Positions 9,922 to 62,447 of a DNA stretch of 64,000 nt are shown here, piece after piece. The position numbers were made by a program, and so were the translations under genes. Numbering within the stretch: position 1 is the first letter of the stretch; each line of letters opens with the position of its first letter. The stretch is taken from positions 123 through 64,122 of the forward strand of contig JBFMCO010000032.1 in the NCBI GenBank assembly GCA_040754495.1, in the 5' to 3' direction. This DNA comes from Candidatus Micrarchaeota archaeon. Its GTDB lineage: Archaea > Micrarchaeota > Micrarchaeia > Anstonellales > Bilamarchaeaceae. The notes beneath the pieces are model-generated. The model did no database searches and was not told the DNA's origin. It was given only the letters and a program-made list of their open reading frames with translations.

Positions 9922-9926
9922 AAGCT

Positions 9927-10911: not shown

Positions 10912-10914
10912 GAA

Positions 10915-37713: not shown

Positions 37714-37995
37714 ATGTCCGATGTCGAGATAACGCACATGACCTCGAAAGGCCAGGTCGTAATCCCCTCAGCTATCCGCAGGGAAATCAGCGCCGCTGAA
37801 GGCACGGTTTTTGCTGTGTTCGGCAGCGGCGACACCATAGTCCTGAAGAAAATCCGCACCCCGAGCGCAGAGCAGTTCAAGAGGGATTGGACCGCCTTGG
37901 TCCGGGAAGGCTCCGGGAAGGTCAAAGCGCTGGGCATTCATGAGGCCGATGCCGCGAAAATCGTACGGAAGCGTCGCGCAAAAAGGCGCGGCTAG
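37714..37995 (+). CDS. AbrB/SpoVT-family antitoxin (VapB-like)
   Basis: 93-aa ORF. TSKGQVVIPSAIRREI...GDTIVLKKI matches the swapped-hairpin AbrB domain pattern. Confidence 0.7.
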   Translation: MSDVEITHMTSKGQVVIPSAIRREISAAEGTVFAVFGSGDTIVLKKIRTPSAEQFKRDWTALVREGSGKVKALGIHEADAAKIVRKRRAKRRG

Positions 37996-38042
37996 CCGCA
38001 GGCAGATGGTTTCCGCGGAAATCCGGCCTCCATCACCTTAAA

Positions 38043-38465
38043 ATGGCCAGTGCGCTCTCCTTCTCGATGCCGCGGCTTTTCCTGGATACCAACGTGCTCA
38101 TATCAGCGACTTTCTGGGAGGGCAGTTCGTATAATCTGCTGCTCAAGATAGCCGATGCCGCAGCATCCGGCTTCACGACCCGCGACGTCCTCCAGGAATA
38201 CCGCATAGTGCTCAAGCGTGACTTCGCTCTGAGCGAGGAAGGAGCGGACACCCGTATTGAAATGCTGCTCCGGATTTTAACCGTCGTGTCTCCGCACGAT
38301 AAAATAGATATGATACGCGAAGACCCATCAGACAACAGGATTCTGGAAGGCGCGCTGGAATCCAGAGCTGACTTCATCGTCTCTTACGACGAGCACCTTC
38401 TGAAGCTGGAATCCTTTCGGGGCATGGAGGTTGTGAAACCCGAGGATGCTTTGAAACGGCTCTAG
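38043..38465 (+). CDS. PIN-domain toxin (VapC-like)
   Basis: 140-aa ORF with LFLDTNVLISA (first acidic residue), later D/E residues (PSDNRILEGA, IVSYDEHL), and a typical size. Confidence 0.75.
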   Translation: MASALSFSMPRLFLDTNVLISATFWEGSSYNLLLKIADAAASGFTTRDVLQEYRIVLKRDFALSEEGADTRIEMLLRILTVVSPHDKIDMIREDPSDNRILEGALESRADFIVSYDEHLLKLESFRGMEVVKPEDALKRL

Positions 38466-38983: not shown

Positions 38984-40248
38984 AGCATTACCCTTTCCCC
39001 TGGCAGCGGAGCCAAGGCATCAAAACCATGCTCCTCCCCGAGCTCCTGCGCGAACTCCTCGGGCTTGTCACCGTGGACGAGCAGGATTCTCTCAGGGTTC
39101 GCCTTCTTTATGAAAGAAAGTATGTCGCTGCGCCCGGCATGCGCGGAGAAATCCAGGTATTCCACTGGCAAATCAATCTGCAGCTCCTGGTCGTCCTTCA
39201 TTATGCATCCCTTGTTCTGGAGCAGCCAGCCGTTCGTGCCTTCCACGCAGTATCCGGTGAATATCAGCTTCGAGTCGCTGTTCGCATTGAACATGTAGTT
39301 CAGGATGGGGCCCCCGTTCATCATGCCCGCGCTGGATATTATGACCGAGGGCTCCCTTGTCGCCGCCTTCTTGTCCGCCACAGAGCCGACCATGGTGACG
39401 CTGCGCACGGCCTTCCTGAACGATTCCGCGTCCCGAATGTACTTCGGATACTGGAGATACACCTTCGTGATGTCCCGCCCCATCCCGTCCACGAACACGG
39501 GGACCTCCTTGTCATAGGCGCGGATGAGCGCTACCAGCTCCTGCGTGCGGCCGAGCGCGAACGAGGGCAGGAGCGCGTTGCCGCCGCCCTCCAGCGTCTC
39601 GTATATCTCCTCCATCAGCTTCTCCTCTATCTCTTTTCTCGGCGGATGCTCCCGCTTCGAGTAGGTGCTCTCCATAACAAGGATGTCCACTCCGTCCGGG
39701 GCCTTGGCGCCGCGGTGCATGAGCGTGTCCTCGCACTTGAAGTCTCCGGTATAAAGCAGGCTCTTGTTGCGGTATTCCACCTCGACCATGGCCGAGCCGC
39801 TGATGTGGCCGGCGTCATGAAGCGCAATTGTCGTCTCGCCGCTCCGTATGGGGTGGTCATATAACAGCGGGTCCCAGCTCCGCATCGCCTTCTTCAGGTG
39901 CGGCAGGCGGTAGGGGAGCCCGTCGCCCATGATTTTCATGGAATCCGCCCAGAGGATTTCGCAGATGTCCTTCGTCGGGGGCGTGGAGTACCAAATCAGG
40001 TTGTTGTGGGTTTTGGGTTTCGTGTCCTGGTTGTAGAGCGCCGGGAGGCATCCGCTGTGGTCGAGGTGCGCGTGCGAGAGCACCATCATGTCGGGCTTCA
40101 GAGGCGTCTCAAGCGGGAACTTCGCCTTGCCGCTCTCGTCGAATATCTTTATGCCATAATCGAGCATGACGTTCCTGTCGGTGTGGAGAAGGAACGCGCT
40201 CCGCCCCACCTCGCGCGACGCGCCCAGGCATTCGACGAAGAAGTCCAT
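38980..40248 (-). CDS. metallo-beta-lactamase / beta-CASP family RNase (aCPSF2/RNase J-like)
   Basis: 422-aa ORF with the HAHLDHSG motif, downstream D/H motifs (HDAGHISGS, FSAHAG) and a length typical of archaeal beta-CASP proteins. Confidence 0.85.
   Translation of the reverse strand: MDFFVECLGASREVGRSAFLLHTDRNVMLDYGIKIFDESGKAKFPLETPLKPDMMVLSHAHLDHSGCLPALYNQDTKPKTHNNLIWYSTPPTKDICEILWADSMKIMGDGLPYRLPHLKKAMRSWDPLLYDHPIRSGETTIALHDAGHISGSAMVEVEYRNKSLLYTGDFKCEDTLMHRGAKAPDGVDILVMESTYSKREHPPRKEIEEKLMEEIYETLEGGGNALLPSFALGRTQELVALIRAYDKEVPVFVDGMGRDITKVYLQYPKYIRDAESFRKAVRSVTMVGSVADKKAATREPSVIISSAGMMNGGPILNYMFNANSDSKLIFTGYCVEGTNGWLLQNKGCIMKDDQELQIDLPVEYLDFSAHAGRSDILSFIKKANPERILLVHGDKPEEFAQELGEEHGFDALAPLPGERVML
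39999..40030. repeat. heptamer-family repeat copy inside beta-CASP gene
   Basis: GGTTGTT GTGGGTT TTGGGTT TCGTGTC. It encodes QDTKPKTHNN just after the HxHxDH motif. Confidence 0.4.
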
Positions 40249-41699: not shown

Positions 41700-42352
41700 A
41701 AATAGACCTCCACGTCCACACGAAATACTCCACAGACGCGCTCATCGAGCCGAAGGCCCTTGCCAAAAAATCCCGTGAGTGCAGAGTCATCCCGGCGATT
41801 ACCGAGCACAACAACATGGATTCGCACAGGGAGCTGCGCTCGCTGAAAACCGACTTCATACCTGGCGAGGAGATAAGGACCGACAGGGGCGACCTCATCG
41901 GCCTCTATCTTTCAGAGCCGATAGCCAAGAACACGCCCTTCATGGAGGCAATAGACAAAATCCATTCACAGAGCGGCCTCGCCTACCTCCCGCACATGTA
42001 CGACAAGTCGCGCAAGGGCGTCGTTCCTTCCAAGAGGGAGGCGCGGAAGCTCGACATAATCGAGGCCTTCAACGCGCGTTGCCCGCTGGAGTCGTTCAAT
42101 GCGAGGGCTGCGGCTTTCGCAGAAGAGCACAAGCTCCCCAAAGCCTGCGGGAGCGACTCTCATTTCCTGATGGAGTTCGGCCATACATATGCGGAGCTGC
42201 CCGACTTCGACCCCGGGAATCCGAAAGCCCTTATCAAGGCGCTCAAAACCGGGAACCCTAAACTCAGGACCCGCAAGGCCGCGCTTTATCTGCGGGGCAC
42301 GACCACGTTCGTGGCCCTCGGAAGAAAACTAATTCACATGCTGAAGTTTTAA
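41696..42352 (+). CDS. PHP-domain metal-dependent phosphoesterase
   Basis: 218-aa ORF with MKIDLHVHTKYSTDA at the N-terminus, later His/Asp motifs (ITEHN, LPHMYD, GSDSH). Confidence 0.8.
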   Translation: MKIDLHVHTKYSTDALIEPKALAKKSRECRVIPAITEHNNMDSHRELRSLKTDFIPGEEIRTDRGDLIGLYLSEPIAKNTPFMEAIDKIHSQSGLAYLPHMYDKSRKGVVPSKREARKLDIIEAFNARCPLESFNARAAAFAEEHKLPKACGSDSHFLMEFGHTYAELPDFDPGNPKALIKALKTGNPKLRTRKAALYLRGTTTFVALGRKLIHMLKF

Positions 42353-44229: not shown

Positions 44230-45294
44230 ATGGCAGAATCCTTCGTTGGCATAGAGATAGCCGTGTTCGTGGTCACGGCCTCCATCGCGCTTGCCGGCAT
44301 CCTCTGGGGCGTTGGCAGGGCATTCGGCTGGAAGAAGCTCGAGCTGTTCGGCGTGGAGGAACTCATGCAATCCATCATAAACGCGGCCATCATCGGCTCT
44401 TTTGCTGCCGTCATAGAGCTTGTCGGTCTGGTCAGCTCCGAGGTCGTCGGGGAATCATGCAAGGAAGGCAACGTCATCGCCCAGCTCACATGCACCATGC
44501 AGGGCCTCAACGACTCGCTGTTCGTCATGCTCCAGGAGCTCCTCCGGACGCTCAACCTCATCGGCTACTACCAGGGGCTCTCGCTCGACTTCGGGCAGTT
44601 CGCGGTGGCCCCGTTCGCGAACCTCGGCCCGGTTTCTGACAGCCTCTCCCTCCAGCTCCTTTCCCTGAACTGGCTCATGATACTCGTCGAGCTGAACACC
44701 CAGATTGCGCTTTTCATCTCGCAGAACGCGCTCGGGCTGCTGTTCCCGGTCGGCCTCGTCCTGCGCACGCTGTTCGCCACGCGCAAGGTCGGCGGGTTCC
44801 TGATAGCCCTCGCCATCGGCCTCTACATATTCTACCCGACGTTCATACTCGTGTTCCCAAACCCCCAGCCGGACGTGGAGCGGGCCGCGCTCACGATGGG
44901 CAACTTCACGAACAACACCTTCTACGCGACCGCGCCGCTCATAGACCTGAACGACAACTACGCCATCGCCGCGAAGCTGGACATCCTGAGCATGCGCTGC
45001 AACCCCCACGCCTTCAACATAACCAACGTGACCAACGTGACGAACACCACGACCGCGTGCGACGATTTCCTGCAGGCACAGAACATGACCTCGAACGTGA
45101 CGCAGAACATGACCTTCGACTTCACCGGCGACATCACCGTGGCCGTGCAGAGCAACAGCAACGCCATCTCGAAGACGTCGCTCTACGCGGTCGTCGCGCC
45201 CATATTCTCTCTCGTGATATCCATCGTTTTCGTGAAGGAGCTGGCCAACATCCTCGGCAGCGAAATAGGCCTCCGGACGATAGCATCCATCTGA
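44230..45294 (+). CDS. polytopic membrane protein (possible VirB6/CedA-like) with sequon-dense loop
   Basis: 354-aa ORF with multiple hydrophobic helices and the extracellular loop NITNVTNVTNTTTAC...NMTSNVTQNMTF. Confidence 0.65.
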   Translation: MAESFVGIEIAVFVVTASIALAGILWGVGRAFGWKKLELFGVEELMQSIINAAIIGSFAAVIELVGLVSSEVVGESCKEGNVIAQLTCTMQGLNDSLFVMLQELLRTLNLIGYYQGLSLDFGQFAVAPFANLGPVSDSLSLQLLSLNWLMILVELNTQIALFISQNALGLLFPVGLVLRTLFATRKVGGFLIALAIGLYIFYPTFILVFPNPQPDVERAALTMGNFTNNTFYATAPLIDLNDNYAIAAKLDILSMRCNPHAFNITNVTNVTNTTTACDDFLQAQNMTSNVTQNMTFDFTGDITVAVQSNSNAISKTSLYAVVAPIFSLVISIVFVKELANILGSEIGLRTIASI

Positions 45295-45325
45295 ATTTTA
45301 AAGACGACAACACAAAGTGAGGTAT

Positions 45326-46111
45326 ATGTTCATGAACAGGGCCGTCACCGCGGCCTCCCTCCTGGGAGGCATCCTGGCCGTCGTCATATCGCTCGTTTAC
45401 GGCAACCCCATACTACCGGTCATCGCGGCCGTGTTCTTCTTCATGACGCTGCTGCTCTGGAAATACGGCTACCTGCTAATCCCGTTCTTCACCCGGGCCA
45501 CCAACATCGTGGAGGTGCACAGCGGCGGGTACGAAGTTCCGCCCACCAGGGACTACATAATCAAGAAGACCGAGGGCGGCTACTACGCGACCAGGTTCCT
45601 GGAAGTGCGCTTCTACGAGAGCTCGATGGACAAGAGCCAGGACGAGAAGAGGACGATGTTCGATTCCTTCGAGAAGGCTGTGAGCTCGCTCAAGTACATC
45701 GTCCGCGTTACGCTCATGATAAGCACCCTCGACCTGTCCAGGCATATAGAGGAGATAAAGACCAAGCGCGGGGTCGTCGAGGCGAAGAAGGCCAAGGAGG
45801 CCAAGCTCGCGGCGGACGAGAGCATGAGGATGGACCGCGAACTGGCCTACTGGAACCGCCTCTTGGACCGCATCACGCAGGGCGAGAGGCCCGTGGAGAT
45901 AGTGGCTTTCGCATCGACGACCGCATTCGGGCTTACGCGCGACGAGGCCCTGGGGCGCGTGAGCAGGCAGGCCAAGGAACTGAAGACCATCCTTTCCAGC
46001 TCGCTGGGGTGCGACATACGCGACCTCTCGGACATAGAGATGCTCAAATGCTTCGAGTGGGAGTATTTCTTCCCGACCACGCAGGAAGAGATAAAGGACG
46101 CGCTATTTTGA
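45326..46111 (+). CDS. two-TM protein with VirB4/TrbE N-terminal-domain-like region
   Basis: ORF opens at GTG 45317, with ATGs at 45326 and 45332 following GAGGT. Two N-terminal TM helices are followed by ...YYATRFLEVRFYESSMDKSQDEKRTMFDSFEKAVSSLKYIVRVTLMISTLD, a pattern like VirB3-VirB4 N-terminal regions. Confidence 0.6.
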   Translation: MFMNRAVTAASLLGGILAVVISLVYGNPILPVIAAVFFFMTLLLWKYGYLLIPFFTRATNIVEVHSGGYEVPPTRDYIIKKTEGGYYATRFLEVRFYESSMDKSQDEKRTMFDSFEKAVSSLKYIVRVTLMISTLDLSRHIEEIKTKRGVVEAKKAKEAKLAADESMRMDRELAYWNRLLDRITQGERPVEIVAFASTTAFGLTRDEALGRVSRQAKELKTILSSSLGCDIRDLSDIEMLKCFEWEYFFPTTQEEIKDALF

Positions 46112-46129
46112 GGGGATTGCGATTCGTGT

Positions 46130-48913
46130 TCAGCCCAGGGCATTCCTCACAATCCTGGCCGGCACTCTGGTCAGATGGCCGGGACGCACAAAGATTCTCT
46201 CCCTGAATGACTTGTCAAGCAGCTTGACTGAAAGCTCGCCAAGTTCAGGATTTTCTAGGACCGGTTTTTCGGAGGACCAGACTTCGACTGTTCTCGGCGT
46301 TTTCCGGTCCATGTCATAGCCGACGACATGCCGCTCGTCATACCCCGAATCGGCAAGGACCGAAAGCATGAATGCTTCATCCAGACCCGCGGTCCTTTTC
46401 TGGAAAGCCGATGAAAGCTCCAGAAGCGCATAAAGCGGCGTGTCTATCTCCCCCATCGAAGGGACGAAACCCCCGTTCCCACCAGGAGGTTTCGCAAGGA
46501 CGAATCCATCCAGCTCTTTCCCTACTGCCGGCCGCGTTTTAACGAACACCATCAGGTTAGTGGCCTGCTCAATTTTTTGTTTGAGCCGCACCGGCTCTTC
46601 CACGCCGAGTCCGGCAAGCTCTTCCAGGGTCAAGGTGCTTGTATATAGCGTCCCTTCGGCAATGATCTCGAATCCGAAATACTGCACCTGCGTCTTGAAG
46701 TGGGCAGTTCTTGAATATTCGACCGGCAGGGAAACAAGCACCGTGCCGGTTTCCACCAGAATCCTGTTCGCTTCGTTGAACACATTTGCCAGCGCTTCGG
46801 TTGTGAGGCGGTGGCAGAATTGTATCATGGCGATGGCATCGAATTCCCCTTCCACCCTGAAACCGGCCTTTTTCACCTCGTGCGCCTTGATATACCTGTG
46901 CACTAGCTGGATGCCCAGCATATCCGCAGCCTTTCCCAGGGGTTCAGGGTAGAATGACATCTCAAGCGTTTTTCTGTTACCAAGAAGCTCCCTGAACTGC
47001 CTCAGGATGGCGAGGGCTTCCCTGAAGACCCTTGTGTTGGCTAGCCTCCTTTTGATACTTTCAATGAGCGCGGGGGAGGGGTTCTCCTGCTCTATCTCAA
47101 GTGCGTTTATGCGATCTTCGGTAAGGCCTCTTTTAGAGTATAAGGCCCTTCTGAGCACCGGGTTTTCCTTCAGGCGCTCCGAAATTGTCCCCGGGCTATA
47201 TGCAAGGGGTCCTCCGTTGGCGTTGCTGAGATTTTTTGCACTGGGAATCCCATCGAAAGATGTGATTGCTTCGAGGATGTGCCTGTCAAGGCGCCGGTCT
47301 ATGGCCGCCCTTGCGTTTCCTTTCGTGCTTATCCAATGTTTGGAGGTAAACTCCCTGTCGAAGACTGCCCTGTCGCATGATTCAACGAACGCTATGCCCC
47401 TCTCTTCCAATGCCTGCTGAAGCCCTGGGTTTTCCTTCAGGCGCTTTGAAATTATCTCCGGGCCATATGCAAGCGGCCCTTCGCCCTCTTTGCCGAGATT
47501 TCCTGCAGCGGGAATCCCATCGAAAGATGTGATTGCTTCGAGGATGTGCCTGTCAAGGCGCCGGTCTATGGCCGCACTTGCCGTTCCTGTCGTACTTGTC
47601 CACTGAGCGGAGGTAAGTTCCCTGTCGAAAATATCCCTGTTGCAGGTTTCAACAAATATTACGCCTTTTTCTTCCAGAGTCTTTCGGAGCCCCGGATTTT
47701 TCTTTAGCCGGTGAGAGATTAGTTTCAGGCTATATGCAAGCGGCCCTTCGCCCTCTTTGCCGAGATTTCCTGCAGCGGGAATCCCATCGAAAGATGTGAT
47801 TGCTTCGAGGATGTGCCTGTCAAGGCGCTTGTCTATCGCCACCCTTGCCTTCCTTATCGCGCCTGTCCACTGTTTGGAGGTAATATTCCTGTCGAAGACC
47901 GCCCTATCGCAGGTTTCAACGTATGCCGCGCCTTTTTCTTCCAATGCCTTCTGGAGTTCCGGGTTTTTCTTCAGATACCTTGAGATTGTTGTTGCGCTGT
48001 ATTCAAGCGGCCCTCCATTGTGTCTGCTGAGATTGTGGGGGTTGGGAATCCCGTCATATAATTCAATTGCCTCGGGGATATGGCTCTCAAGGCGCCGGTC
48101 TATGGCAGCGTTTATTTTCCCTGTTGCTCTGGTCCACCGTCCAGAGATAAATTCCCTGTCGAAGACCGCCCTCTCGCAGGTTTCAACGAATGCAATGCCT
48201 TTCTCTTCCAACGCTTTCTTGAGTTCCGGGTTTTCCTTCAGGCGTCCCAAGATTGTCACCGGATCATATGCAAGCGGCCCTCCGCTGGTTTTGCTGAGGT
48301 TTGTTGCATTCGGAATCCCATTGTATGATTCAATTGCCTCGAGGATATGGCTGTCAAGGCGCCGGTCTATGGCAATCCTTACTTTTTTTCGCGGTTGTTT
48401 TAACCTTCCAGAGATAAATTCCCTGTCGAAGACCGCCCTCTCGCAGGTTTCAACGAACGCAATGCCTTTCTCTTCCAACGCCTCCCGGAGCAGTGGATTT
48501 TTCAATAACCGGTCCCCGATTAGCTTAGTACTATATTCGAGCGGCCCCTTGCCCTCTTTGCTGAGATTTTTAACACTTGGAATCCCATCGTATGATTCGA
48601 TTGCCTCGAGGATGTGCCTGTCAAGGCGCAAGTCTATGGCACCCCTAATCCTCCCAGACGCGTTTACCCATCGATGAGAGGTAATTTCACTGTCGAAGAC
48701 CGCCCTATCGCAGGCTTCAACGAACGAGATGCCCTTTTCTTCCAATGCCTTCTGAAGCCCCGGATTTTCCTTCAGGCGCTCCGAGATAATGTGATGGCCA
48801 CACGCCATCGGTCCTCCGCCATCTTTGCTGAGAGTATGAGCGCTGGGGATTCCGTTGCATGAGCGGATATACTGAAGTATCTCATTATCTATCTCGGAAT
48901 AGGTTTTCCCCAT
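46130..48913 (-). CDS. repeat protein: about 6.7 tandem 89-aa modules plus a roughly 330-aa C-terminal domain (weak methyltransferase-fold-like pattern)
   Basis: 927-aa ORF. The repeated module is IDRRLDRHILEAI.S.DGIP...NL.K...GPL.Y....I..RLK.NP.L..ALEEKGIAFVETC.RAVFDREF.S..W. The C-terminal FDAIAMIQFCHRL...NRILVETGTVLVSLP weakly recalls class I MTases. Confidence 0.75.
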   Translation of the reverse strand: MGKTYSEIDNEILQYIRSCNGIPSAHTLSKDGGGPMACGHHIISERLKENPGLQKALEEKGISFVEACDRAVFDSEITSHRWVNASGRIRGAIDLRLDRHILEAIESYDGIPSVKNLSKEGKGPLEYSTKLIGDRLLKNPLLREALEEKGIAFVETCERAVFDREFISGRLKQPRKKVRIAIDRRLDSHILEAIESYNGIPNATNLSKTSGGPLAYDPVTILGRLKENPELKKALEEKGIAFVETCERAVFDREFISGRWTRATGKINAAIDRRLESHIPEAIELYDGIPNPHNLSRHNGGPLEYSATTISRYLKKNPELQKALEEKGAAYVETCDRAVFDRNITSKQWTGAIRKARVAIDKRLDRHILEAITSFDGIPAAGNLGKEGEGPLAYSLKLISHRLKKNPGLRKTLEEKGVIFVETCNRDIFDRELTSAQWTSTTGTASAAIDRRLDRHILEAITSFDGIPAAGNLGKEGEGPLAYGPEIISKRLKENPGLQQALEERGIAFVESCDRAVFDREFTSKHWISTKGNARAAIDRRLDRHILEAITSFDGIPSAKNLSNANGGPLAYSPGTISERLKENPVLRRALYSKRGLTEDRINALEIEQENPSPALIESIKRRLANTRVFREALAILRQFRELLGNRKTLEMSFYPEPLGKAADMLGIQLVHRYIKAHEVKKAGFRVEGEFDAIAMIQFCHRLTTEALANVFNEANRILVETGTVLVSLPVEYSRTAHFKTQVQYFGFEIIAEGTLYTSTLTLEELAGLGVEEPVRLKQKIEQATNLMVFVKTRPAVGKELDGFVLAKPPGGNGGFVPSMGEIDTPLYALLELSSAFQKRTAGLDEAFMLSVLADSGYDERHVVGYDMDRKTPRTVEVWSSEKPVLENPELGELSVKLLDKSFRERIFVRPGHLTRVPARIVRNALG
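47126..48892. repeat. coding tandem repeat, period 267 bp, about 6.7 copies
   Basis: The landmark GGGAATCCC recurs at 47243, 47510 and 47777, exactly 267 bp apart. A 97-nt stretch is identical between two adjacent copies (about 47465-47561 and 47732-47828). Confidence 0.85.
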
Positions 48914-48965
48914 TTTATTCGTTATAATATATGTAAGAAAAGGTTATAAACGGGCCAGTTAGCGA

Positions 48966-49140
48966 AAAAACCGGGACCGGAAACCGGGAACCCGAGACTG
49001 CAGCCTGGAAACAGGAATCCGGATGCCGGTATTCCAGAACCCCAAACGGGAAACCAAGCTTCCAAGACCGGAAACCATACGGCTGCTACCGCAAGTTTCC
49101 CGGTTCCTCCCGGAACCGAGAACCGGGAACTGGGAACCAC
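48966..49140. repeat. largest array of the 7-nt-period repeat family (SGAAACC orientation on + strand)
   Basis: CCGGGAC CGGAAAC CGGGAAC CCGAGAC ... GACCGGAAACC ... GGAACCG AGAACCG GGAACTG GGAACCA. There is a short inverted segment GTTTCCCGGTTCC. The array is intergenic, between divergent genes. Confidence 0.75.
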
Positions 49141-49265
49141 CGACGCCAGGACGTTATTTCCGGAGCATAACGTTTATATACCGCCAACGAGATACTTACT
49201 CTCGACATGCCTCATGAAGTTTTGATGAAACTTTTATCTGTCGTTTCATCGGAGGAAAAGTCTCA

Positions 49266-50840
49266 ATGAAGCCATCATACATGCTCTCCAAGGAGATTGC
49301 GCGCAAGATGATTCTCGTGCACCCTCCTGAGCCGAGGAAGGAGCTCCTGCTCTCGCTTCCGTCGCAGGGGGTGTACATCGGCAAGACCAGGTTCCTGCGC
49401 ACGCCGGTCTTCTGGGACCCGAGCAAGCTCATCAATCCGCACCTCGCCATAATAGGCATAACCGGCTCGGGCAAATCCTACACAGTGAAGACGTTCCTCA
49501 CGAGGGCCTCCCTCATCTGGGACACGAACGCCATCATCCTGGACTGGGTGGGCGAGTACAAGGAGTGGGTGACACAGGCCGGGGGCCGCGTCATAGACCT
49601 GTCCAAGGAGAAGCTGAACATACTCGACCTTGCGGGCCTTCCCAAGCGGAGCAGGATAAAGCAGATAATCTCGGCGCTCGACATCCTCCTCGACCTGAAA
49701 AGCTACCCTAACGAGAGGGACGAGATAGAGGAAGCCCTCGAATACGTCTACTACAGGTCCGGAAGCCAGAAACCGACCCTGAAGGAGCAGGTCAAGGCCA
49801 TGAACCTGGAGAAGGCGCGGGCGCAGAGGAAGCTCGGAAAGCAGGAGGTCGAGGAGGCCCTGGAGGAGCTCTGCTATGACGGGAAATGCGAGAGGCCGAC
49901 GCTCGCGCATGTCGTCCATGTGCTCGAGAGGAGCAACAAGAGGAAGGCCGCCCGCCTGCTCAAGCGCTTCACCGCAGAGGGCACGGACTTCTTCGCCGGC
50001 TCATCGACGCTGGATATCGGGAAGCTGACCACCAGCGGCCTCGTCTGCATCGACCTGCACGGCCTGCCGAGCGAGGAGATAAGGAGCCTTGCAGGCCTCA
50101 CTATACTCCAGTACATCAAGGAGCTGATGCGCGCCGAGGGCATGCAGAAGGACAACAAGCACGTCCGCCTCTTCGTGGTGCTGGACGAGGCGTGGAAAAT
50201 CGCGCAGGACGAGCGAAGCGACGTCATAACCATAGTCCGCGAGGGCCGCAAGTATAATTTTTCCCTCGTCATCGCGACGCAGAACCCGAGCGACATGCAC
50301 AAGACGATATTCAGCAACATCGGCACGGTGTTCGTCCTAAGGCTGATACTCAAGGAATACCGGGACTACGTCCGCAACTCCATCGGCTACTCCGACTTCA
50401 TAGACGGCGAGATTTCCAAGTTCGGCGTCGGAGACGCGGCCGTGAACATGATTTTCGCGGAGAGGCAGTCGCGTGTCATGACCTTCCTCATGGAAAAAAT
50501 TGACGGCGAGGAGCCTCTCCTCATATACAAGATAAGAGGTGGGGAGATGATAGTGGAAATCGAGCGCGAGCAGTTCGTCAGGATGCTCTACGAAATCGGC
50601 CTGAACGAGAGCCAGCTCAACCTCATCAAGGGCGAGTTCGAGAAGGGCGACGGCCTCCTCGACGGGGAGCAGCTCGTCGCGGTCCTGGAGAAGTTCGGAT
50701 ACTCCAAGCCCTCCATAATCTCGTTCCTGAGGCAGCTCGGCATTGACGAGAAGAACCTCATCCGCGTGTTCTCGCTTGTCCGGATGAGGAAGGCAACGAA
50801 GGGCGTGGTCAACGTGGTCCTCGAGGACGGACACGTCTGA
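49266..50840 (+). CDS. VirB4/TrbE/HerA-superfamily ATPase (C-terminal ATPase module type)
   Basis: 524-aa ORF with Walker A (IIGITGSGKSYTVK), Walker B (RLFVVLDEAWKIA), and REGRKYNFSLVIATQNPSDM, typical of the VirB4/HerA-FtsK clade. GGAGG sits upstream of the ATG. Confidence 0.8.
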   Translation: MKPSYMLSKEIARKMILVHPPEPRKELLLSLPSQGVYIGKTRFLRTPVFWDPSKLINPHLAIIGITGSGKSYTVKTFLTRASLIWDTNAIILDWVGEYKEWVTQAGGRVIDLSKEKLNILDLAGLPKRSRIKQIISALDILLDLKSYPNERDEIEEALEYVYYRSGSQKPTLKEQVKAMNLEKARAQRKLGKQEVEEALEELCYDGKCERPTLAHVVHVLERSNKRKAARLLKRFTAEGTDFFAGSSTLDIGKLTTSGLVCIDLHGLPSEEIRSLAGLTILQYIKELMRAEGMQKDNKHVRLFVVLDEAWKIAQDERSDVITIVREGRKYNFSLVIATQNPSDMHKTIFSNIGTVFVLRLILKEYRDYVRNSIGYSDFIDGEISKFGVGDAAVNMIFAERQSRVMTFLMEKIDGEEPLLIYKIRGGEMIVEIEREQFVRMLYEIGLNESQLNLIKGEFEKGDGLLDGEQLVAVLEKFGYSKPSIISFLRQLGIDEKNLIRVFSLVRMRKATKGVVNVVLEDGHV

Positions 50841-50857
50841 TAAGGGGGAAAACTCAT

Positions 50858-51562
50858 ATGGCGGAAGAGACGATCACAGTTCCGGCGGCGCAGAAGAAGC
50901 CCTTGAAGGGCCTGGCCTCGCTTCTCTCGGGCCTCGGCTTCACGAGGATACAGTACGGGAAGGGAACGCTCTCTGTGGAGAAGATAAAGGGGACCGACCT
51001 GCAGGGCAAGCCGTACCTGGAGTACCGGGTCGAGTTCAGGCAGGATTCGGTCGTCTTCCTCTACAGCTTCTCGGCCAAGAGGAGCCGCATCGCGAGGCTG
51101 CTGGATTTGATGCCGACGTTCCTCAACATCCTCCAGGTGGCGGAGGACTACTACGACGTGCGCCCGACCGGCATATTCACCCACATCAACGCCCTGCTCT
51201 CCGAGACCTCGAAGATAATAGACCGGGACGCGCTGGAATTCTCGACGCAGCTCTCCGAGCTGCAGGCGCGCTACAACGACATGAGCACCAAATACGACGA
51301 CCTGGTCCGCTCCGGGGAGACCAACACCCGCCTCCTGCTCGAGTGCGAGAGGAAGAGGGACGAGGTTCAGAAGAAGCTCGCCCAGCTTTCCGGCATGGGC
51401 GACGATTTGCTCAAGGAGACGCTCTACAACTGGATAAAGCTCCACGGCGGAACGATTGACGTGCGCGAGTTCGCGAAGGCGCATTCCGTCGCCGTGACGC
51501 GGGCCGAGGACGGCCTGAACATGCTCATCAAGGAAGGATACATCAGGAGGCGCTTCGAATGA
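50858..51562 (+). CDS. hypothetical coiled-coil protein with C-terminal wHTH-like region
   Basis: 234-aa ORF starting 18 nt after the ATPase stop. Central heptad-rich segment (LSELQARYNDMSTKYDDL...KRDEVQKKLAQL). The C-terminus (IDVREFAKAHSVAVTRAEDGLNMLIKEGYIRR) is wHTH-like. Confidence 0.6.
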   Translation: MAEETITVPAAQKKPLKGLASLLSGLGFTRIQYGKGTLSVEKIKGTDLQGKPYLEYRVEFRQDSVVFLYSFSAKRSRIARLLDLMPTFLNILQVAEDYYDVRPTGIFTHINALLSETSKIIDRDALEFSTQLSELQARYNDMSTKYDDLVRSGETNTRLLLECERKRDEVQKKLAQLSGMGDDLLKETLYNWIKLHGGTIDVREFAKAHSVAVTRAEDGLNMLIKEGYIRRRFE

Positions 51563-51822
51563 GCAGGCGCAGAAGAAGGGGCGGAAACGGAGGTCCGGGC
51601 GCGGGGGTCCAGATGGCAGGAAAATCCGGGCCGGAGGCCGGAAGCCGGAGACGGGATGCCGCAGAAGAGCCGCAGATGAGCCAGTACATCTTCACCTTCG
51701 AGCTCATCCGCCACTATCCGACGGTGCGCTCGTTCCTGGTGAAGCAGCCGCTCAAGCGCTCGTTCTCCGATACCTTCTCAGAGCTCCTTGGCGGGAACAA
51801 GAAAGGCATTTATAGGCTTTAG
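51559..51822 (+). CDS. small basic hypothetical protein
   Basis: 87-aa ORF with an ATGA overlap with the upstream gene and an Arg/Gly-rich N-terminus. Confidence 0.35.
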   Translation: MSRRRRRGGNGGPGAGVQMAGKSGPEAGSRRRDAAEEPQMSQYIFTFELIRHYPTVRSFLVKQPLKRSFSDTFSELLGGNKKGIYRL

Positions 51823-55460: not shown

Positions 55461-56240
55461 ATGGAGGGCAAGGTGGAGCGTTATATACACGAGGAGCTGG
55501 CTACGAAAAAAGGCCTGCTCTTCGCCCTCATCGACCCGCTCGACTACAAGTCGCCGGCCGATGCGATAAAGACCGCCCGCAACGCTGACGAGGGAGGGGC
55601 GGACATCATACTCATAGGCGGGAGCACGGGCGTGCAGGGCGAGGCCCTTGACATGGTCGCCAAATCCATCAAGGAGGCGGTCTCGAAGCCGGTCGTGCTC
55701 TTCCCGGGCAACATAGGCACGCTCACCAAATACGCAGATGCCGTCTATTTCATGTCCATGCTGAACTCGCGCAACACGTACTGGATAAGCGAGGCGCAGA
55801 TGCTGGCCGCCCCCATGGTGAGGCATTACGGGATAGAGCCCCTCCCGGTCGCATACGCGGTCGTGGACCCAGGAGGGACCGTGGGCTGGGTTGGCGATGC
55901 GAAGCGCATACCGCGCAACAAGCCGAAAATAGCAGCGGCCTTCGGCATGGCCGCAGAGTACATGGGATTCCGCTTCTTCATAACGGACGCCGGGAGCAAC
56001 CCCGAGAACGGCCACATACCCCTCGAGATGGTGAGCGCGGTGCGCTCCTGCATAACCATCCCGTACATCGCGGCCGGCGGCATACGGACCGCCGAGCAGG
56101 CGAAGGGCGTGATAAAGGCAGGGGCCGACATAATCCAGGTCGGCACCGCGTTCGAGAAGGAGAGCTCGGTCTCGAAGATAAAGGACATGGTGAAGGCGGT
56201 CCGCGATGGGGCAAGGGCCAGGGAGCAGCAGAAGCCTTAG
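55461..56240 (+). CDS. geranylgeranylglyceryl phosphate synthase (PcrB/GGGPS family)
   Basis: ATG 55461 follows GGTGGTG. Motifs: LFALIDP, GGSTG, FFITDAGS, IAAGGIRT. Confidence 0.9.
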   Translation: MEGKVERYIHEELATKKGLLFALIDPLDYKSPADAIKTARNADEGGADIILIGGSTGVQGEALDMVAKSIKEAVSKPVVLFPGNIGTLTKYADAVYFMSMLNSRNTYWISEAQMLAAPMVRHYGIEPLPVAYAVVDPGGTVGWVGDAKRIPRNKPKIAAAFGMAAEYMGFRFFITDAGSNPENGHIPLEMVSAVRSCITIPYIAAGGIRTAEQAKGVIKAGADIIQVGTAFEKESSVSKIKDMVKAVRDGARAREQQKP

Positions 56241-56335
56241 GCGCATCCGGTCTCCCGAGGGAAGATCGCTTCCCTGGGCACCGGGAACGGGCCGCCGTTC
56301 TCGATTGCCTGCATCCGTTCCCGGCACATCTAAAC

Positions 56336-56362
56336 GCAAAACCCACAACCGGAAACCAGACA
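56336..56362. repeat. heptamer-family repeat copy between convergent genes
   Basis: AAACGCA AAACCCA CAACCGG AAACCAG. It is flanked by short hairpins (GGGAAG-ATCG-CTTCCC at 56259-56274; GCGGGC-TGGGT-GCCCGC). Confidence 0.45.
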
Positions 56363-56400
56363 ATGCGGGCTGGGTGCCCGCTGCCGGTAACCGGCTGCCC

Positions 56401-57255
56401 CTAGTCCGGCTCCATGTGGACGCTGACTTCCTTCACCTGGGGCACGGCCCTGATTATGTTGTTTTCCACTTCGTGGGCTATCCTGTGGGCCGTCACGATG
56501 TCCGTCTTGTGCGGGAAATGTATATGGACGTCCACGAAGACGCGGCTTCCGGCCACCCTCGCCCTGAGCTTGTGGTATCTAGTTATCCGCTTCTCCGCGC
56601 CAAGCACCCCCTCTATGCGGGAGAGCGTGGATTTGTCCGGGCTGAAGTCCATGAATATCACGAACGAGCGGATTCCGAGCTCAATCGATATGTAGAGCAT
56701 CACGAGCCCGACTGCGATGGCCGAAATGGGGTCGCCGATGGGGAATCCCAGCCTAACAAAAAGCAGGCCCGCGAGCACTGCGGCAGAGCTTATCACGTCG
56801 GTCAGGAAGTGGGCCGAGTCGGCCTCCAGCGCATGGCTGCCTCCCTCCTTCCTCGCGGTATCGGAAAGATAGCGGGAAGTGAGGTATGTCACCGGTATCG
56901 AAACGGCCATCAGCGCTATGCCAAGCTCCGAGTTCTCCACCTTCCCGGGCTCCGCAATCTTCTGGAAGGCCTCGAACAGCACGACACCCGCTGTTCCCAC
57001 GATAAGCATGGCCTGGAGGAGGGAGGAGAGGTTCTCGAACTTCTCGTGCCCGAAATGGTGGGTGCGGTCGCTCGGCTCCTCGCCCTTCCTGATGCCGAGG
57101 TACGCCAGCACCGATGCGAGGAGGTCGAAAAGGGAATGGGCGGATTCGGCGTACAGCCCTATGCTGCCGGTCAGCAGGGCCGCACTGATTTTGCTGAGAA
57201 GAAGGGCGGTGTTCACGCCTATGGAGACCGCGGCCGCGCCGAGCTTCTTTCCCAT
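56401..57255 (-). CDS. cation diffusion facilitator (CDF) family metal efflux transporter
   Basis: 284-aa ORF with HSLFDLLAS and DSAHFLTDV metal-site motifs, six TM segments and a C-terminal cytoplasmic domain. Confidence 0.9.
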   Translation of the reverse strand: MGKKLGAAAVSIGVNTALLLSKISAALLTGSIGLYAESAHSLFDLLASVLAYLGIRKGEEPSDRTHHFGHEKFENLSSLLQAMLIVGTAGVVLFEAFQKIAEPGKVENSELGIALMAVSIPVTYLTSRYLSDTARKEGGSHALEADSAHFLTDVISSAAVLAGLLFVRLGFPIGDPISAIAVGLVMLYISIELGIRSFVIFMDFSPDKSTLSRIEGVLGAEKRITRYHKLRARVAGSRVFVDVHIHFPHKTDIVTAHRIAHEVENNIIRAVPQVKEVSVHMEPD

Positions 57256-57991: not shown

Positions 57992-59109
57992 CGCTTTATC
58001 GCGGCAAGGCAGAAATCCAAAAAGCCGTCGTCGATGCCGACCACTTCGAGCCGCCTGCAGACTGCGCTCATGCCAAGGAGGCCGGATACGCTCGGCTCGG
58101 TCCTCCCGCCGTCGCTGGAAATCAGCTCCTTGATGTATGTCCCGGCCTCGGCTTTTATGATTAGGGTTGCCAGTTTCGGGTTTTCCGTTTCCCGTCTGAC
58201 CACTTCGATGTGCTTCACCTTCCTGTGCCGGACAAGGTTCGCCCTCCTGTGCGCGACGCGCGTCGGCGTCTTCTGGAGGATGGTCTTCCCCTCCAGGGTG
58301 CGGATTCTGGCAAGCGCATCGTCATCCACGTCAGCGCCGAACTCGACGTCAGCCTCGTAGGTCTTGTCGAAATGCGACTCGGTCACAAGCTCGCAGAAGC
58401 CTCTTTGGACGATTCGCAGGCCGGAAACGGCGACGTCCCCCTTTTCGCCTATCTCGCGCGCTATGGAATCCAGCTCCAGCTTCCTCTCTTTCGGGCCCTT
58501 TAGCTCCATCACGAACGGCCTGCCGGCGCTGTTTGTAGCGTCCACGTCCTCCCTGCCGGAGGCGTGCATCACGTAATCATCAGCGGAGGCGGCCTTTTTC
58601 AGCGGCCCCCCCACCCTCTCCTCGACCGATTCGTAGAGCATCCCCTTCCCGTGGCAGGCCGGGCATCCCTTGCCCTCGCATTTCGGGCAGCGCCAGCGGC
58701 TCTGCGACAATCCTGCCGAGAGCTTCATGTACCTGCCGAAGACGAAAAGCTCGTTGCGCTCCAGGCTGACCGCCCCCTTCGAGTAGTCGAAGACAAGGCG
58801 GCACTCGCCGTCCGGGACGTATCGCGCGCCGGACGCCTTCTCGAGCGCGGCTGAGATGCTCTTGTTCAGGAAGCTCTTCACGCTCTCTGCGCCGGCCAGC
58901 CTCTCGTCCCATGCACGCTCCTCGCGGGCCAGCCAGTCACGGCTCATCATCGTAGAGATGGAGAAGCTGCCCGCTTTCTCGGCGGCGAGCAGGCGAGCGG
59001 CCTCCTGCACCATCGCATCTGTCTTGAGGGCCGCGCCCCCGCATACATGGCATTCGCCTTCGGAAAAATGGGAGGAATTGGCGCGACCGCATACCATGCA
59101 CAAAAACAT
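57988..59109 (-). CDS. pus10: tRNA pseudouridine(54/55) synthase Pus10
   Basis: 373-aa ORF with Zn-ribbon Cys pairs (CMVCGR...CHVCGG; RCPKCEGKGCPACHG), GREDVD...GRPFVMEL and YIKELISSDGGRTEPS. Confidence 0.85.
   Translation of the reverse strand: MFLCMVCGRANSSHFSEGECHVCGGAALKTDAMVQEAARLLAAEKAGSFSISTMMSRDWLAREERAWDERLAGAESVKSFLNKSISAALEKASGARYVPDGECRLVFDYSKGAVSLERNELFVFGRYMKLSAGLSQSRWRCPKCEGKGCPACHGKGMLYESVEERVGGPLKKAASADDYVMHASGREDVDATNSAGRPFVMELKGPKERKLELDSIAREIGEKGDVAVSGLRIVQRGFCELVTESHFDKTYEADVEFGADVDDDALARIRTLEGKTILQKTPTRVAHRRANLVRHRKVKHIEVVRRETENPKLATLIIKAEAGTYIKELISSDGGRTEPSVSGLLGMSAVCRRLEVVGIDDGFLDFCLAAIKR
58165..58197. repeat. heptamer-family-like segment inside pus10
   Basis: CAGTTTC GGGTTTT CCGTTTC CCGTCTG, encoding RRETENPKL. 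Whether it is an insertion is unclear. Confidence 0.3.
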
Positions 59110-59894: not shown

Positions 59895-59959
59895 GTGGTT
59901 CCCTGTTTCCGGTTTCGAGTCCCGCCGGCCAAAACCCGAAACTGGAAACTCTAAACCAC
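59895..59959. repeat. inverted pair of heptamer-family units forming a roughly 65-nt hairpin
   Basis: GTGGTT...GTTTCCGGTTTCG...(loop)...CGAAACTGGAAAC...AACCAC. The 13-nt arms have one G:T position, and outer 6-bp arms also pair. It lies between the polB stop and the next promoter. Confidence 0.6.
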
Positions 59960-59987: not shown

Positions 59988-62447
59988 TCAGAAGTAGTGG
60001 TCCAGGGACTTCTGCTTCCCTCCGAACTTCATGCTGTACTCGTCGTAGCCGAGCTCCTTCATTATCTTCATCACGGCAGGGAGCACCTGGTTGTTTATGT
60101 AGTAGTCGGCGTCGTAATCCTTCGCGAGCTCCAGGGGAGCCGCCTTCTCGGAGATGGTCTTTCCGCTCCTGCCGATTACGTATGAGACGAGCGTGCCCTT
60201 CTCCACGGGAATCCCGGCCTCCCTCATCCTGTTCGCGGCCGAGAGCTCCGGGCTCTTCACCTCGTAATTCCCGGGGCTTTTCAGGAGCTGGGTGCTGATT
60301 GCGAGCTTCTCGAGCGGCACCTTCCCCTCCTGGAGGTCGGACACGACCCCGCGGATGATGGACACTGCCTTCTCCTTGCTGCCTTCCCTGAGTATGGCCT
60401 CGAGCACCTTGAGCTGCGTCTCCTTGGCTATCGAGGACCAGTCGCGGCGCACCAGCTCGAAGCCTCTTATCTTGATGCGGCCGTCCTCGCCAAGGAGCGC
60501 GTATTTCTTCTTCGCGCCCCTCTCTTCCCCGCCCTTCTTGCTCACAAACACTCCGCGCGTGTAGAATCCCTCGAGTTCCAGCTCCATCTTCGGCGGGAGC
60601 GCCGCGTTCACCGCGTTCATGAACCGTATGACGTCCTCCCTGTCCTTGTACAGCAGGAAAACGGAATCAGTGTCGGCATAAAGCACCGTGAAGCCGTCCC
60701 TCTCGGCCCGCTCTATGGTCTCCATGATGTGCTTGCGGCCCCACGCCGTGACGCTTTCCGCGCACGGGCGCGAGTACCACCTCGAGCGGGCGTAGCCCAT
60801 ATAGCCGTAGAAGCTGTTCGCGAGGATTTTGAGCGCGTGCGAGCGCGCGTTCATCCGGACATAGGCGTCGCTGGACTTGTCGAGCGTTTTCAGCTCCTTC
60901 TTGAGCTTCATCCTCATGTCTATGAGGTAGTCGAGGACGAACGGTATGAGGCCGGTCCGGTCCCTGGCGAACGTCGCCCCGGTAGGGGATACGAAGGCGG
61001 TTTCCGGGGACTGGCTGCCATGAGGCTGCGGCCTCAAGCCCTCCAGCGCTTCGCGCTGAAGGCCGGCTGCCGGATGCCGATTGCCGGATGCCGGCTGCTG
61101 CATAAGCGTGCCGGGGTCGATATTGTAAGAAACGATAATCGAGGGATACAGCCCACGGAAGTCGAGCACGGCCATCTTGTCGTATATGCCCGGCTCGGGC
61201 AGTTTCACGAACGCGCCCTGTATCGGGGCGCTCGCGCGCTCCATGATGGTGTCGCCGCCGGGCCTTGAGGGGATGAGCTCCCCCCTCTCCGTCGCATGGA
61301 ACATAAGGAGGTTCTCGACAAGCTGCCCGCTGGTCGAGAGCGTGGTTTCGAAAAGCGGCATCTTGGCGACGCCGGAGAGCTCCACCTCTATCGGCAGGAA
61401 GCGGTCGCCGAGGGCCAGCGTCAGCTCTGAATCCACGAGCGAATACTCGCAGAGGCGGTCTATGTCCCCCTTGTCCCACATCTGCCAGATGTCCTCCTTG
61501 GCTATCTTCACCTTCTTGCTGCCAAGGACGTCCTGCGCCACCGCGTCCAGGGTGAACTTCTGCGTCTTTATGAGGCCTATGAAGCCGAAGAACTTCACGG
61601 CCGGATACAGGTCGAAATGGACGCGGCCGCCTATGCGCATACCGCTGATGAGGCCTTTCTGCAGCGGCTTTATCGCGCCGCCGAAACGGCCGAGCCTGAA
61701 TGCCGCCCCGGCCCTCTGCGCCCTGGTCTTCAGGTACGGGAGGTCGAAGTTGGCCGAGTTGTAGCCGAGGAGGACGTCCGGGTCCTCGTCGCGCACGATT
61801 TTCGAGAACCGCTCCAGCATCTCCCTCTCGCCGTCGCAGGTCTGGACGAAATCCTTCCCGGATTTCTTGAACGTGAGGACGCCCTTGCTCTTCCCGCAAT
61901 AGCTTATCATGACCACCGGGTCCTTGCCCTCCCTGGGCGCTCCCATCGGGTTGTAGGTCTCGATGTCGAAGCTCATGGAGCTGAGCCTGGGCTCGCCCGG
62001 CTTTACCGAAAGGAACCGCTTTATGAGCTTCCCCTCGCGCTCGTAGGACAGGATGTGGAGCGGCGTCAGGCCCATGTCGAAAATGAAGCGCCTCGCGAAG
62101 GGGATGTTGTATTCAAAGCAGGTGAAGGGGATTGCGGCCTTGATGGCAGGCACGTGCGACGGCTCGCGGCAATAGAGCTTAAGGAGCTTTTTTTTGCCGG
62201 AGCCGACATTCCTCTCGGCTTCCTCGACCCGGATAGGCGAGACTATTTCGCCGCTCTTCTTCGCGGCCTTGAGATGCAGGAGGTCGTCCTTGCGCTCCGG
62301 CGGCGCGTCAACGTAGAAATACGGGTCGTACTGGTAGTAGCGCTTGACGGTTTTCCTGCCCTTGAGGAGCAGGGAAACGTACGTCTTCCCGTTCTTCACC
62401 GTGTAGCCGGCGTCTATGAAGAAAGCCCGCTTCCTAGAAATAGCCAT
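59988..62447 (-). CDS. polB: family B DNA polymerase
   Basis: 819-aa ORF with exo motifs (FDIETYN, YNSANFDLPYL) and polymerase motifs (DFRGLYPSII, KILANSFYGY, LYADTDSV). Confidence 0.95.
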   Translation of the reverse strand: MAISRKRAFFIDAGYTVKNGKTYVSLLLKGRKTVKRYYQYDPYFYVDAPPERKDDLLHLKAAKKSGEIVSPIRVEEAERNVGSGKKKLLKLYCREPSHVPAIKAAIPFTCFEYNIPFARRFIFDMGLTPLHILSYEREGKLIKRFLSVKPGEPRLSSMSFDIETYNPMGAPREGKDPVVMISYCGKSKGVLTFKKSGKDFVQTCDGEREMLERFSKIVRDEDPDVLLGYNSANFDLPYLKTRAQRAGAAFRLGRFGGAIKPLQKGLISGMRIGGRVHFDLYPAVKFFGFIGLIKTQKFTLDAVAQDVLGSKKVKIAKEDIWQMWDKGDIDRLCEYSLVDSELTLALGDRFLPIEVELSGVAKMPLFETTLSTSGQLVENLLMFHATERGELIPSRPGGDTIMERASAPIQGAFVKLPEPGIYDKMAVLDFRGLYPSIIVSYNIDPGTLMQQPASGNRHPAAGLQREALEGLRPQPHGSQSPETAFVSPTGATFARDRTGLIPFVLDYLIDMRMKLKKELKTLDKSSDAYVRMNARSHALKILANSFYGYMGYARSRWYSRPCAESVTAWGRKHIMETIERAERDGFTVLYADTDSVFLLYKDREDVIRFMNAVNAALPPKMELELEGFYTRGVFVSKKGGEERGAKKKYALLGEDGRIKIRGFELVRRDWSSIAKETQLKVLEAILREGSKEKAVSIIRGVVSDLQEGKVPLEKLAISTQLLKSPGNYEVKSPELSAANRMREAGIPVEKGTLVSYVIGRSGKTISEKAAPLELAKDYDADYYINNQVLPAVMKIMKELGYDEYSMKFGGKQKSLDHYF

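Follow-up and report, generated by a model that had tools for sequence, protein, structure and literature searches.

Families of tandemly repeated heptanucleotides that recur at many dispersed loci of one genome have been described in bacteria. Rehm et al. (2015; PMC4692102) reported (GGGAATC)n at about 185 loci per genome in Xanthomonas and (GGGGAYT)n in Nostoc PCC7120; they cite the tandem heptanucleotides of Calothrix PCC7601 (STRR) and an over-representation of heptamer simple sequence repeats (SSRs) in many bacteria, for which polymerase slippage has been proposed as an explanation. Arrays in these families hold 2 to 26 units, mostly four; the units are heterogeneous, both strands are used, and 89 to 93% of the arrays are intergenic, near gene ends. 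About 70 convergent inverted pairs are known, array length varies between sister species, and no function has been established (PMC4692102). Here we describe a family of this general kind in a 64,000-nucleotide (64-kb) stretch of a Candidatus Micrarchaeota genome (contig JBFMCO010000032.1), hereafter the window, to which all coordinates refer. Its largest member is a tract of degenerate 7-nt units, or heptads, between two divergently transcribed genes.

We favor, at somewhat better than even confidence, reading these arrays as a heptanucleotide SSR family, filtered by selection, that pervades this genome and, more sparsely, those of related Micrarchaeota. Among known kinds it comes closest to the dispersed heptameric repeat families of bacteria, here in an archaeal, gene-invading form that is not of the G-quadruplex type; an earlier reading of the window made from the letters alone (the sequence-only reading) had been unable to place it in a known class. 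As in the bacterial families, 7-nt units run head to tail in tandem and one unit is shared by many loci dispersed over a genome. The units are heterogeneous; most arrays hold about four, with occasional long ones, and they lie on both strands. Arrays are enriched between genes near gene ends, frequently form convergent inverted pairs, and are restricted to particular lineages, with length and sequence varying between relatives. However, the host is a DPANN archaeon, the core of the unit is GT(T) rather than a G-tract, hence no G-quadruplex, and no perfect array exceeds two units. Furthermore, more than half of the arrays lie in coding sequence, against 7 to 11% in Xanthomonas, and the coding arrays obey a strict strand rule. 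Our search of the literature on archaeal or Micrarchaeota heptamer repeats found nothing specific.

Two other systems resemble the family in their effect on proteins, and it belongs to neither. Rickettsia palindromic elements (RPEs) likewise provide in-frame, tolerated peptide insertions in loops of essential proteins of an organism with a reduced genome, but they are about 100 to 150 bp long with a defined palindromic consensus, whereas here there is only a 7-nt unit, with variable lengths and no termini. The tandem repeats of Borgs, extrachromosomal elements of Methanoperedens, are also archaeal, located both between and within genes, and a source of disordered hydrophilic segments (PMC9879509). 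Borg repeats are reported there to be recent and to arise independently at each locus, whereas the arrays described here have one shared unit, of a length not divisible by three, and are imperfect.

The family is dispersed, has a period of 7 nt and occurs in both orientations, and its reality is confirmed by scans of the window against shuffled controls. The motif GGTTTCS is found 41 times, against 17.5 expected. Defining a strict array as at least three in-phase units, each with at most two mismatches, we counted 12 in 64 kb versus 0.05 in dinucleotide shuffles. An identical scan at other periods returned none at 5, 6 and 9 to 12 and one at period 8, and when the same seven letters were permuted, 50 of the 60 cyclic classes gave no array, the classes yielding more than two being only near-identical variants that match the same loci. 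Inside genes, four strict arrays were found versus 0.09 when the codons of every gene were shuffled, which disposes of the concern, raised in the sequence-only reading, that codon usage for K, P, E and T could account for them. A position weight matrix (PWM) scan recovered 14 arrays above the maximum score of 30 shuffles. A motif-agnostic scan for period 7 returned essentially this family alone, together with its variant flavor CCGGARR/GCCGGAT (51627-51664 and 61062-61098), and the output of Tandem Repeats Finder also includes period-7 rows.

The largest local array occupies part of the following region:

48914 to 49265: divergent intergenic region, between a repeat-protein gene (46130 to 48913, minus strand) and a HerA/VirB4/CedB-like ATPase gene (49266 to 50840, plus strand).
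48944 to 48950, minus strand: TATA box TTTATAA of the repeat-protein gene, in a promoter/leader string that is kept upstream of homologues in other genomes.
48972 to 49082, minus strand: main heptad array, with about 15 unit slots and nine strong units in a single phase.
49095 to 49118: inverted junction between the two blocks, where plus-strand units AGTTTCC and CGGTTCC face minus-strand units.
49111 to 49138, minus strand: second array of four units (GGTTCCC AGTTCCC GGTTCTC GGTTCCG), directly upstream of the ATPase promoter.
49173 to 49180, plus strand: TATA box TTTATATA of the ATPase gene, inside the conserved string ATAATGTTTATATACCGCC.

The gap between the two genes is 352 nt; the 175 nt given for it in the sequence-only reading approximates the repeat tract, which takes up about 170 nt (48972-49138). 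The remainder of the gap consists of two core promoters and one 5' leader. Read on the minus strand, the tract is a series of degenerate heptads GGTTYYS, the family unit being N-G-T-T-Y-Y-S (complement S-R-R-A-A-C-N); the main array includes GGTTTCC, GGTTCCC, GGTCCCG, AGTCTCG, TGTTTCC, GGTTCTG and GGTCTTG, among other units. The heptads quoted in the sequence-only reading are present, as is the hairpin that it noticed, formed at the inverted junction by CGGTTCC (49101-07) and GGAACCG (49112-18). Scored with a weight matrix built from arrays elsewhere in the window, strong units start at 49076, 49069, 49055, 49041, 49013, 48999, 48992, 48985 and 48978: nine of nine share one phase modulo 7 across 15 slots, for which the chance probability is about 7^-8. 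The units of the second block (49138-49117) are in a different phase. The string around the ATPase TATA box is conserved in about 25 Micrarchaeota orthologues. Since both flanks hold core promoters, the repeat tract appears as a filler of the inter-promoter spacer, and it is best read as non-coding spacer DNA between two divergent archaeal core promoters.

A feature of its own is found in the ATPase gene's 5' leader: an 8-bp hairpin, GATGAAAC/GTTTCATC, at 49224-49255, directly ahead of the GGAGG Shine-Dalgarno sequence. One orthologue (locus L005; loci of related genomes are given L numbers below) has a similar element, duplicated, in its leader, and other relatives are without it.

Beyond the focal tract, the arrays and array-like stretches of the window are as follows:

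1161 to 1282 (1161 to 1186 and 1262 to 1282), plus strand: two heptad stretches in RibD (gene on the minus strand), encoding RTGNPE and KTRNGKLETR; loop insertions relative to B. subtilis RibD.
4353 to 4382, plus strand: heptad-like stretch in the gene at 3822 to 4487 (minus strand), encoding AKPETIETL; the gene is conserved in related metagenome loci.
8632 to 8659, plus strand: array in PyrK (gene on the minus strand) that contributes to a loop insertion of 20 aa (..PERETNSPKPEAGG..).
9539 to 9573, plus strand: five-unit array in PyrD (gene on the minus strand), encoding DPKPETGNRKLG; 8-aa insertion (DPKPETGN..) otherwise seen only in L031.
9926 to 9960, plus strand: five-unit array in what is presumably the 5' leader of PyrD, adjoining its start codon (ATG 9921).
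10871 to 10912, plus strand: six-unit array next to the start codon (ATG 10915) of a lipoprotein-like gene, here with its T-rich strand as the sense strand.
29235 to 29269, plus strand: array coding for the C-terminal tail of GyrA (gene on the minus strand).
40002 to 40029, plus strand: array in a beta-CASP/MBL nuclease gene (minus strand), with an exact 21-nt insertion encoding DTKPKTH.
42244 to 42264, minus strand: array coding for KTGNPKL within the C-terminal part of a PHP-domain gene (plus strand).
51627 to 51664, minus strand: array of variant units, which read CCGGARR on the plus strand, within the N-terminal disordered region of a conserved small basic protein.
56330 to 56357, minus strand: four-unit array in the intergenic stretch 56229 to 56413.
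58165 to 58192, plus strand: array in a variable hairpin loop of Pus10 (gene on the minus strand), encoding RRETENPKLAT.
59897 to 59957, both strands: two arrays of four units each, inverted and convergent, located 30 nt downstream of the stop codon of PolB.
61062 to 61098, plus strand: second unit flavor, (GCCGGAT)5, in PolB (59988 to 62447, minus strand), within a lineage-specific loop insertion of about 27 aa.

Eight loci listed in the sequence-only reading (9535-9574, 9927-9960, 10871-10911, 29233-29272, 39999-40030, 56336-56362, 58165-58197 and 59895-59959) were verified. Two more, 1161-1186 and 8631-8660, are real but weak, each having two good units plus degenerate ones. To these we add 1262-1282, 4353-4382 and 42244-42264, and the variant-unit arrays 51627-51664 and 61062-61098. 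The gene at 3822-4487 looks RibB-like from its sequence, and the stretch at 4353-4382 is probably a native proto-heptad rather than an insertion. Between PyrD and the lipoprotein-like gene lie 993 nt (9922-10914) devoid of a confident gene, with a heptad array abutting the start codon on each side.

Seven of 16 arrays fall in the non-coding 8% of the window, a 5.5-fold enrichment (p=1e-4), and the other nine are coding. The coding insertions are located in loops and tails of RibD, PyrK, PyrD, GyrA, the beta-CASP nuclease, Pus10 and other proteins. The sequence-only reading had proposed that such arrays are compatible with in-frame coding insertions, and the comparison with orthologues bears this out. 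In the beta-CASP gene, exactly 21 nt (three heptads, seven residues) are inserted that are not present in 14 orthologues; the uninterrupted site in relatives reads CCAGAACCGGATAC and is heptad-like already. In PyrK, the loop between RGPxGKPF and RILxxGGGYG holds heptad-coded insertions of differing length in the window and in L046, L037, L031, L049 and L050, whereas relatives free of an insertion have CCG-GAA-AAG-GCG-AAA-CGG at this point, that is, two proto-heptads. The PyrK insertion lengths, +12, +33 and +60 nt, do not correspond to whole unit numbers. RibD contains insertions of 9 and 6 aa, which lie opposite gaps when it is aligned with B. subtilis RibD (PDB 2b3z). Loop insertions are likewise seen in PyrD and PolB, the orthologues of the latter having short, variable loops at the position of the GCCGGAT insertion. 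Other lineages have counterparts at two of these places: L007 Pus10 has FPETGNRRLA at the site of the window's RRETENPKLAT, and L006 has a canonical array at the site of the variant array 51627-51664. In L049 the PyrK loop additionally has an insertion of about 45 aa that is rich in cysteine (..CKTTQCVSTENSKFENKCDCCCG..), after which comes a segment coded by heptads.

The coding arrays are all oriented alike. GAAACC is on the sense strand in 11 of 11 coding cases of the window and also in the cases from other lineages, with one ambiguous case (L037 14157), whereas non-coding arrays occur in both orientations. On this strand, (CCGGAAA)3 encodes P-E-T-G-N-R-K; the opposite strand would give F-P-V-S-G-F-R. 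Seven is no multiple of the codon length, and non-coding DNA carries the unit as well; the phenomenon is therefore one of DNA, filtered by selection, rather than a peptide repeat.

All loci share the heptad, and no longer consensus is found. The longest sequence common to two arrays is 15 nt, versus a null median of 16 nt for random concatenation of units, which rules out copy-and-paste from array to array as well as a longer element. As the loci align to nothing longer than the heptad, we are dealing with a simple-sequence family rather than an element with ends. The beta-CASP insertion was examined for terminal inverted repeats (TIR) and a target-site duplication (TSD), and neither was found. 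Nor do the arrays have a consensus of defined length with TIR and TSD, as miniature inverted-repeat transposable elements or RPE-like elements do, or 24- to 48-nt repeats with unique spacers, as in CRISPR arrays: their 7-nt units are contiguous. The sequence-only reading had excluded both classes, and also the origin recognition box (ORB). Consistently with the last exclusion, a replication origin was rejected: the mini-ORB pattern scores 14 where 12.4 is expected and does not match anywhere in the tract, and no Orc1/Cdc6 is found among the scanned proteins. The Pfam scan covered 46 window proteins, about ten open reading frames (ORFs) being left out, including the six array-bearing RibD, PyrK, PyrD, GyrA, beta-CASP and PHP genes; it revealed no transposase, reverse transcriptase, integrase or Orc1/Cdc6.

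Arrays are unevenly distributed among relatives. In 28 related loci from metagenome-assembled genomes (MAGs; 484 kb) they are confined to L002, L006, L007 and L027, and in 80 metagenome loci retrieved with PyrD (695 kb) to L031, L037, L039, L046 and L051, apart from one probable chance match in L078 (GGTTTGT GGTTTGC GGTTACC). L051 has a GC content of 39%; three arrays are also present in L157 (48% GC). No further period-7 family was seen in any related MAG or metagenome locus scanned, and the genome of the window is by far the richest in arrays among the loci compared. At the ATPase promoter, L006 carries a five-unit array (9883-9917) just upstream, in a position matching 49111-49138 of the window, while L002, L003 and L004, whose proteins are 90 to 95% identical to those of L006, have none. 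The PHP-gene array is intact in L002 and heavily remodeled at equal length in L004 (95% identical). The presence or absence of an array thus shifts on a short evolutionary scale. Differences of this sort, which the sequence-only reading suggested as a check, are seen between genomes of 90 to 95% protein identity. No record of the window's own proteins was found, and its nearest relatives do not exceed 90% identity for the ATPase and 77% for PyrD.

Perfect (GGTTTCG)n arrays occur in 48 IMG/VR contigs. Because two permuted control heptads give 15 and 28 contigs, we regard these as a generic background of heptamer SSRs, and a viral origin of the family was discarded on these grounds. In L125, L110, L114, L112 and L137, unrelated viral contigs of IMG/VR that range from 31 to 72% GC, perfect arrays of (GGTTTCG)n or (AGTTTCG)n reach as many as 10 units, and one contig holds several of them. 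Permuted control heptads are only two to three times rarer. Heptamer SSRs thus appear to be a general low-level feature of viromes.

Under the SSR reading, arrays would be born at chance proto-heptads such as CCG-GAA-A, then expanded and remodeled at the DNA level, presumably by replication slippage or template switching. They would build up where sequence is unconstrained, in intergenic DNA, in 5' leaders and after stop codons. Within genes they would survive only if the change in length is a multiple of three, the site is a surface loop or tail, and GAAACC lies on the coding strand, which yields hydrophilic P/E/T/G/N/R/K peptides instead of peptides of F/V/S/G/R type. The focal tract would then be the largest accumulation, located in a promoter spacer free of constraint, next to a gene that was inserted recently, and the arrays would have no dedicated function. 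Expansion in situ fits the data because the insertion sites in relatives (beta-CASP, PyrK) carry proto-heptads.

Several features of the units weigh against this account. In 81 non-coding units, G2 and T3 are invariant (100%) whereas positions 1, 5, 6 and 7 vary by 27 to 47%, a pattern not to be expected of neutral decay. Arrays are mosaics of about six unit variants, with never more than two identical neighbors and with adjacent units barely more alike than units of different arrays, whereas fresh slippage is expected to give homogeneous arrays. In addition, an identical unit is retained in genomes of 39 to 60% GC; the five inverted pairs found (including 59897-59957 of the window and those of L007, L027 and L046) share one polarity, five of five being convergent; and the focal array holds its phase over about 105 bp. 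These observations hint at constraint, or at a motif-specific generating process, beyond plain slippage.

One such constraint may be protein binding, which the sequence-only reading had considered in a phased form. The omega repressor of pSM19035 and other inc18 plasmids, a ribbon-helix-helix (RHH) protein, binds 7 to 10 contiguous WATCACW heptads in direct or inverted orientation, the 7-bp spacing letting omega dimers wrap the helix. By comparison, the arrays may be iteron-like operators at which a lineage-specific small protein would polymerize, one heptad per dimer, and co-regulate the two focal promoters. Like omega operators, they are contiguous 7-bp units upstream of promoters; direct and inverted arrangements are both present, and their geometry is compatible with the omega type. 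The invariance of G2-T3 with freedom elsewhere, the phase coherence of the focal array, the exact filling by the tract of the interval between the two TATA boxes, and the other arrays that abut start codons or promoters all fit an operator. Nevertheless, we hold this to be unlikely: over half of the arrays are inside housekeeping coding sequences, the ATPase promoter is conserved in about 25 genomes and has an array only in L006, and orientation relative to the downstream gene is inconsistent. Moreover, omega sites serve a few promoters of one plasmid that encodes the cognate RHH protein, whereas the present arrays are genome-wide, often coding, and have no cognate or candidate binding protein identified; the adjacent repeat protein gives only weak hints of a helix-turn-helix (HTH), and its homologues are without upstream arrays. 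The alternative of a dedicated insertion process, either templated additions at DNA breaks in the manner of telomerase or a very short, RPE-like non-autonomous element, would account for discrete insertions at sites where all orthologues lack them, as in beta-CASP, for a single unit set across lineages of very different GC, for heterogeneity even in arrays that seem lineage-specific, and for gain and loss among genomes 90 to 95% protein-identical. We consider it rather improbable given arrays with no TIR, TSD, fixed length or shared sequence beyond the heptad, PyrK insertions that are not whole units, proto-heptads already at the insertion sites, and no reverse transcriptase, transposase or integrase among the 46 proteins scanned.

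Structure in the nucleic acid itself has very little probability in our estimate. It would take the form of a G-quadruplex or i-motif, as proposed for the Xanthomonas and Nostoc heptamers, of hairpins, or of T-tract terminators. A perfect (GGGTTTC)n would share the G3-N3-C type with GGGAATC, hairpins can arise from convergent inverted pairs (one of them 30 nt after the PolB stop), and the T-rich strand has runs of T3 to T4. However, among 33 arrays, four or more G3 tracts occur in none and four or more G2 tracts in just two, and the most conserved unit positions are G2, T3 and T4, a GT(T) core rather than a run of G; membership of the G-quadruplex heptamer subclass was rejected on this basis. 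The focal tract folds only marginally better than its shuffles (z = -1.6 as DNA and -2.4 as RNA), and oligo-T terminators were dismissed for their inconsistent orientation, many intergenic arrays placing the A-rich strand downstream of the preceding gene (for example, L006 9883 and 12377). A structured RNA was also set aside: no Rfam match reaches gathering scores in the window, none is found in 48800-49400 at E<=1, and the folding z-scores are weak. As for the view that there is no real family, only a by-product of base composition and of K/P/E/T/G/N codon usage, some weak loci do look like native coding motifs, 4353-4382 (AKPETIETL) presumably among them. Yet this view has practically no credibility left after the dinucleotide and codon shuffles and the permuted-motif classes reported above; moreover, the non-coding arrays lie in both orientations and a period of 7 is no codon multiple. 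A broader idea, to which we give a minor but appreciable weight, is that the heptads are the footprint of a motif-specific Micrarchaeota system, either a genome-wide tag or iteron bound by a lineage-specific protein or a product of templated insertion or repair. The tag would be read at every 7 bp by way of the GT step, which is invariant, and conceivably would mark self DNA for the adjacent CedB/VirB4-like machinery. In the templated form, short arrays would be written into the chromosome, essential genes included, by analogy with the interstitial repeats made by telomerase.

The setting of the favored SSR family is an ordinary, high-GC chromosome segment, encoding FtsZ, AglB, GatD/E, gyrase A/B, CCA-adding enzyme, PurD, Pus10 and PolB, with RibD, PyrD and PyrK identified from their sequence or a PDB match (2b3z for RibD). 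No tRNA gene was found in the window. The region 39-61 kb is syntenic with MAG loci. A MazE/AbrB-type antitoxin and a PIN-domain toxin, a VapBC-like pair, stand amid the housekeeping genes at 37714-38465.

The label of VirB4-like ATPase used in the sequence-only reading is acceptable: the protein matches DUF87/HerA and AAA_10, with CedB DNA-import and VirB4-type matches below threshold. Orthologues at 60 to 90% identity are found in 28 MAG contigs, nearly all labeled Candidatus Micrarchaeota. In most relatives a conserved gene ending in ..EEIKDALF* directly precedes the ATPase promoter; here, the repeat-protein gene and the large array sit between the two, a lineage-specific addition of about 3.1 kb. 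The ATPase belongs to a string of genes conserved in Micrarchaeota (44230-51822), along with two unknown proteins, a 234-aa protein and the small basic protein; this string may be a DNA-translocation or secretion module of symbionts.

The minus-strand gene at 46130-48913 encodes a 927-aa protein with seven exact-period 89-aa repeats and a C-terminal domain of about 330 aa. Its AlphaFold2 (AF2) model has a pLDDT of 74 and no significant fold match, the best being winged-HTH proteins at E>2, and a PHROG 'transcriptional regulator' reaches 2.4e-6 only as a sum over repeats. Six homologues were retrieved among 5.8 billion proteins (loci L157-L161), in differing genomic contexts and with the same promoter/leader string kept, which suggests a rare mobile orphan gene. 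No heptads lie upstream of the homologues at these loci. A link between the array and the adjacent repeat protein was ruled out, as homologue loci keep the promoter without upstream heptads and the HTH hints are faint.

Heptamer families have for decades been on record from a few bacteria, their origin and function unexplained, and are here extended to DPANN archaea, whose genomes of roughly 1 Mb are not where 'junk' DNA is expected. Because the arrays invade essential genes, individual insertions can be dated and delimited by comparison of orthologues. The strict strand rule exposes a selective filter, and the invariant unit positions point to constraint beyond what simple slippage predicts. 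In practical terms, core enzymes such as PolB, GyrA, PyrD/K, RibD and Pus10 acquire from the arrays disordered loops that are specific to a lineage, and such loops can mislead alignment, phylogenetic analysis and gene calling for Micrarchaeota MAGs.

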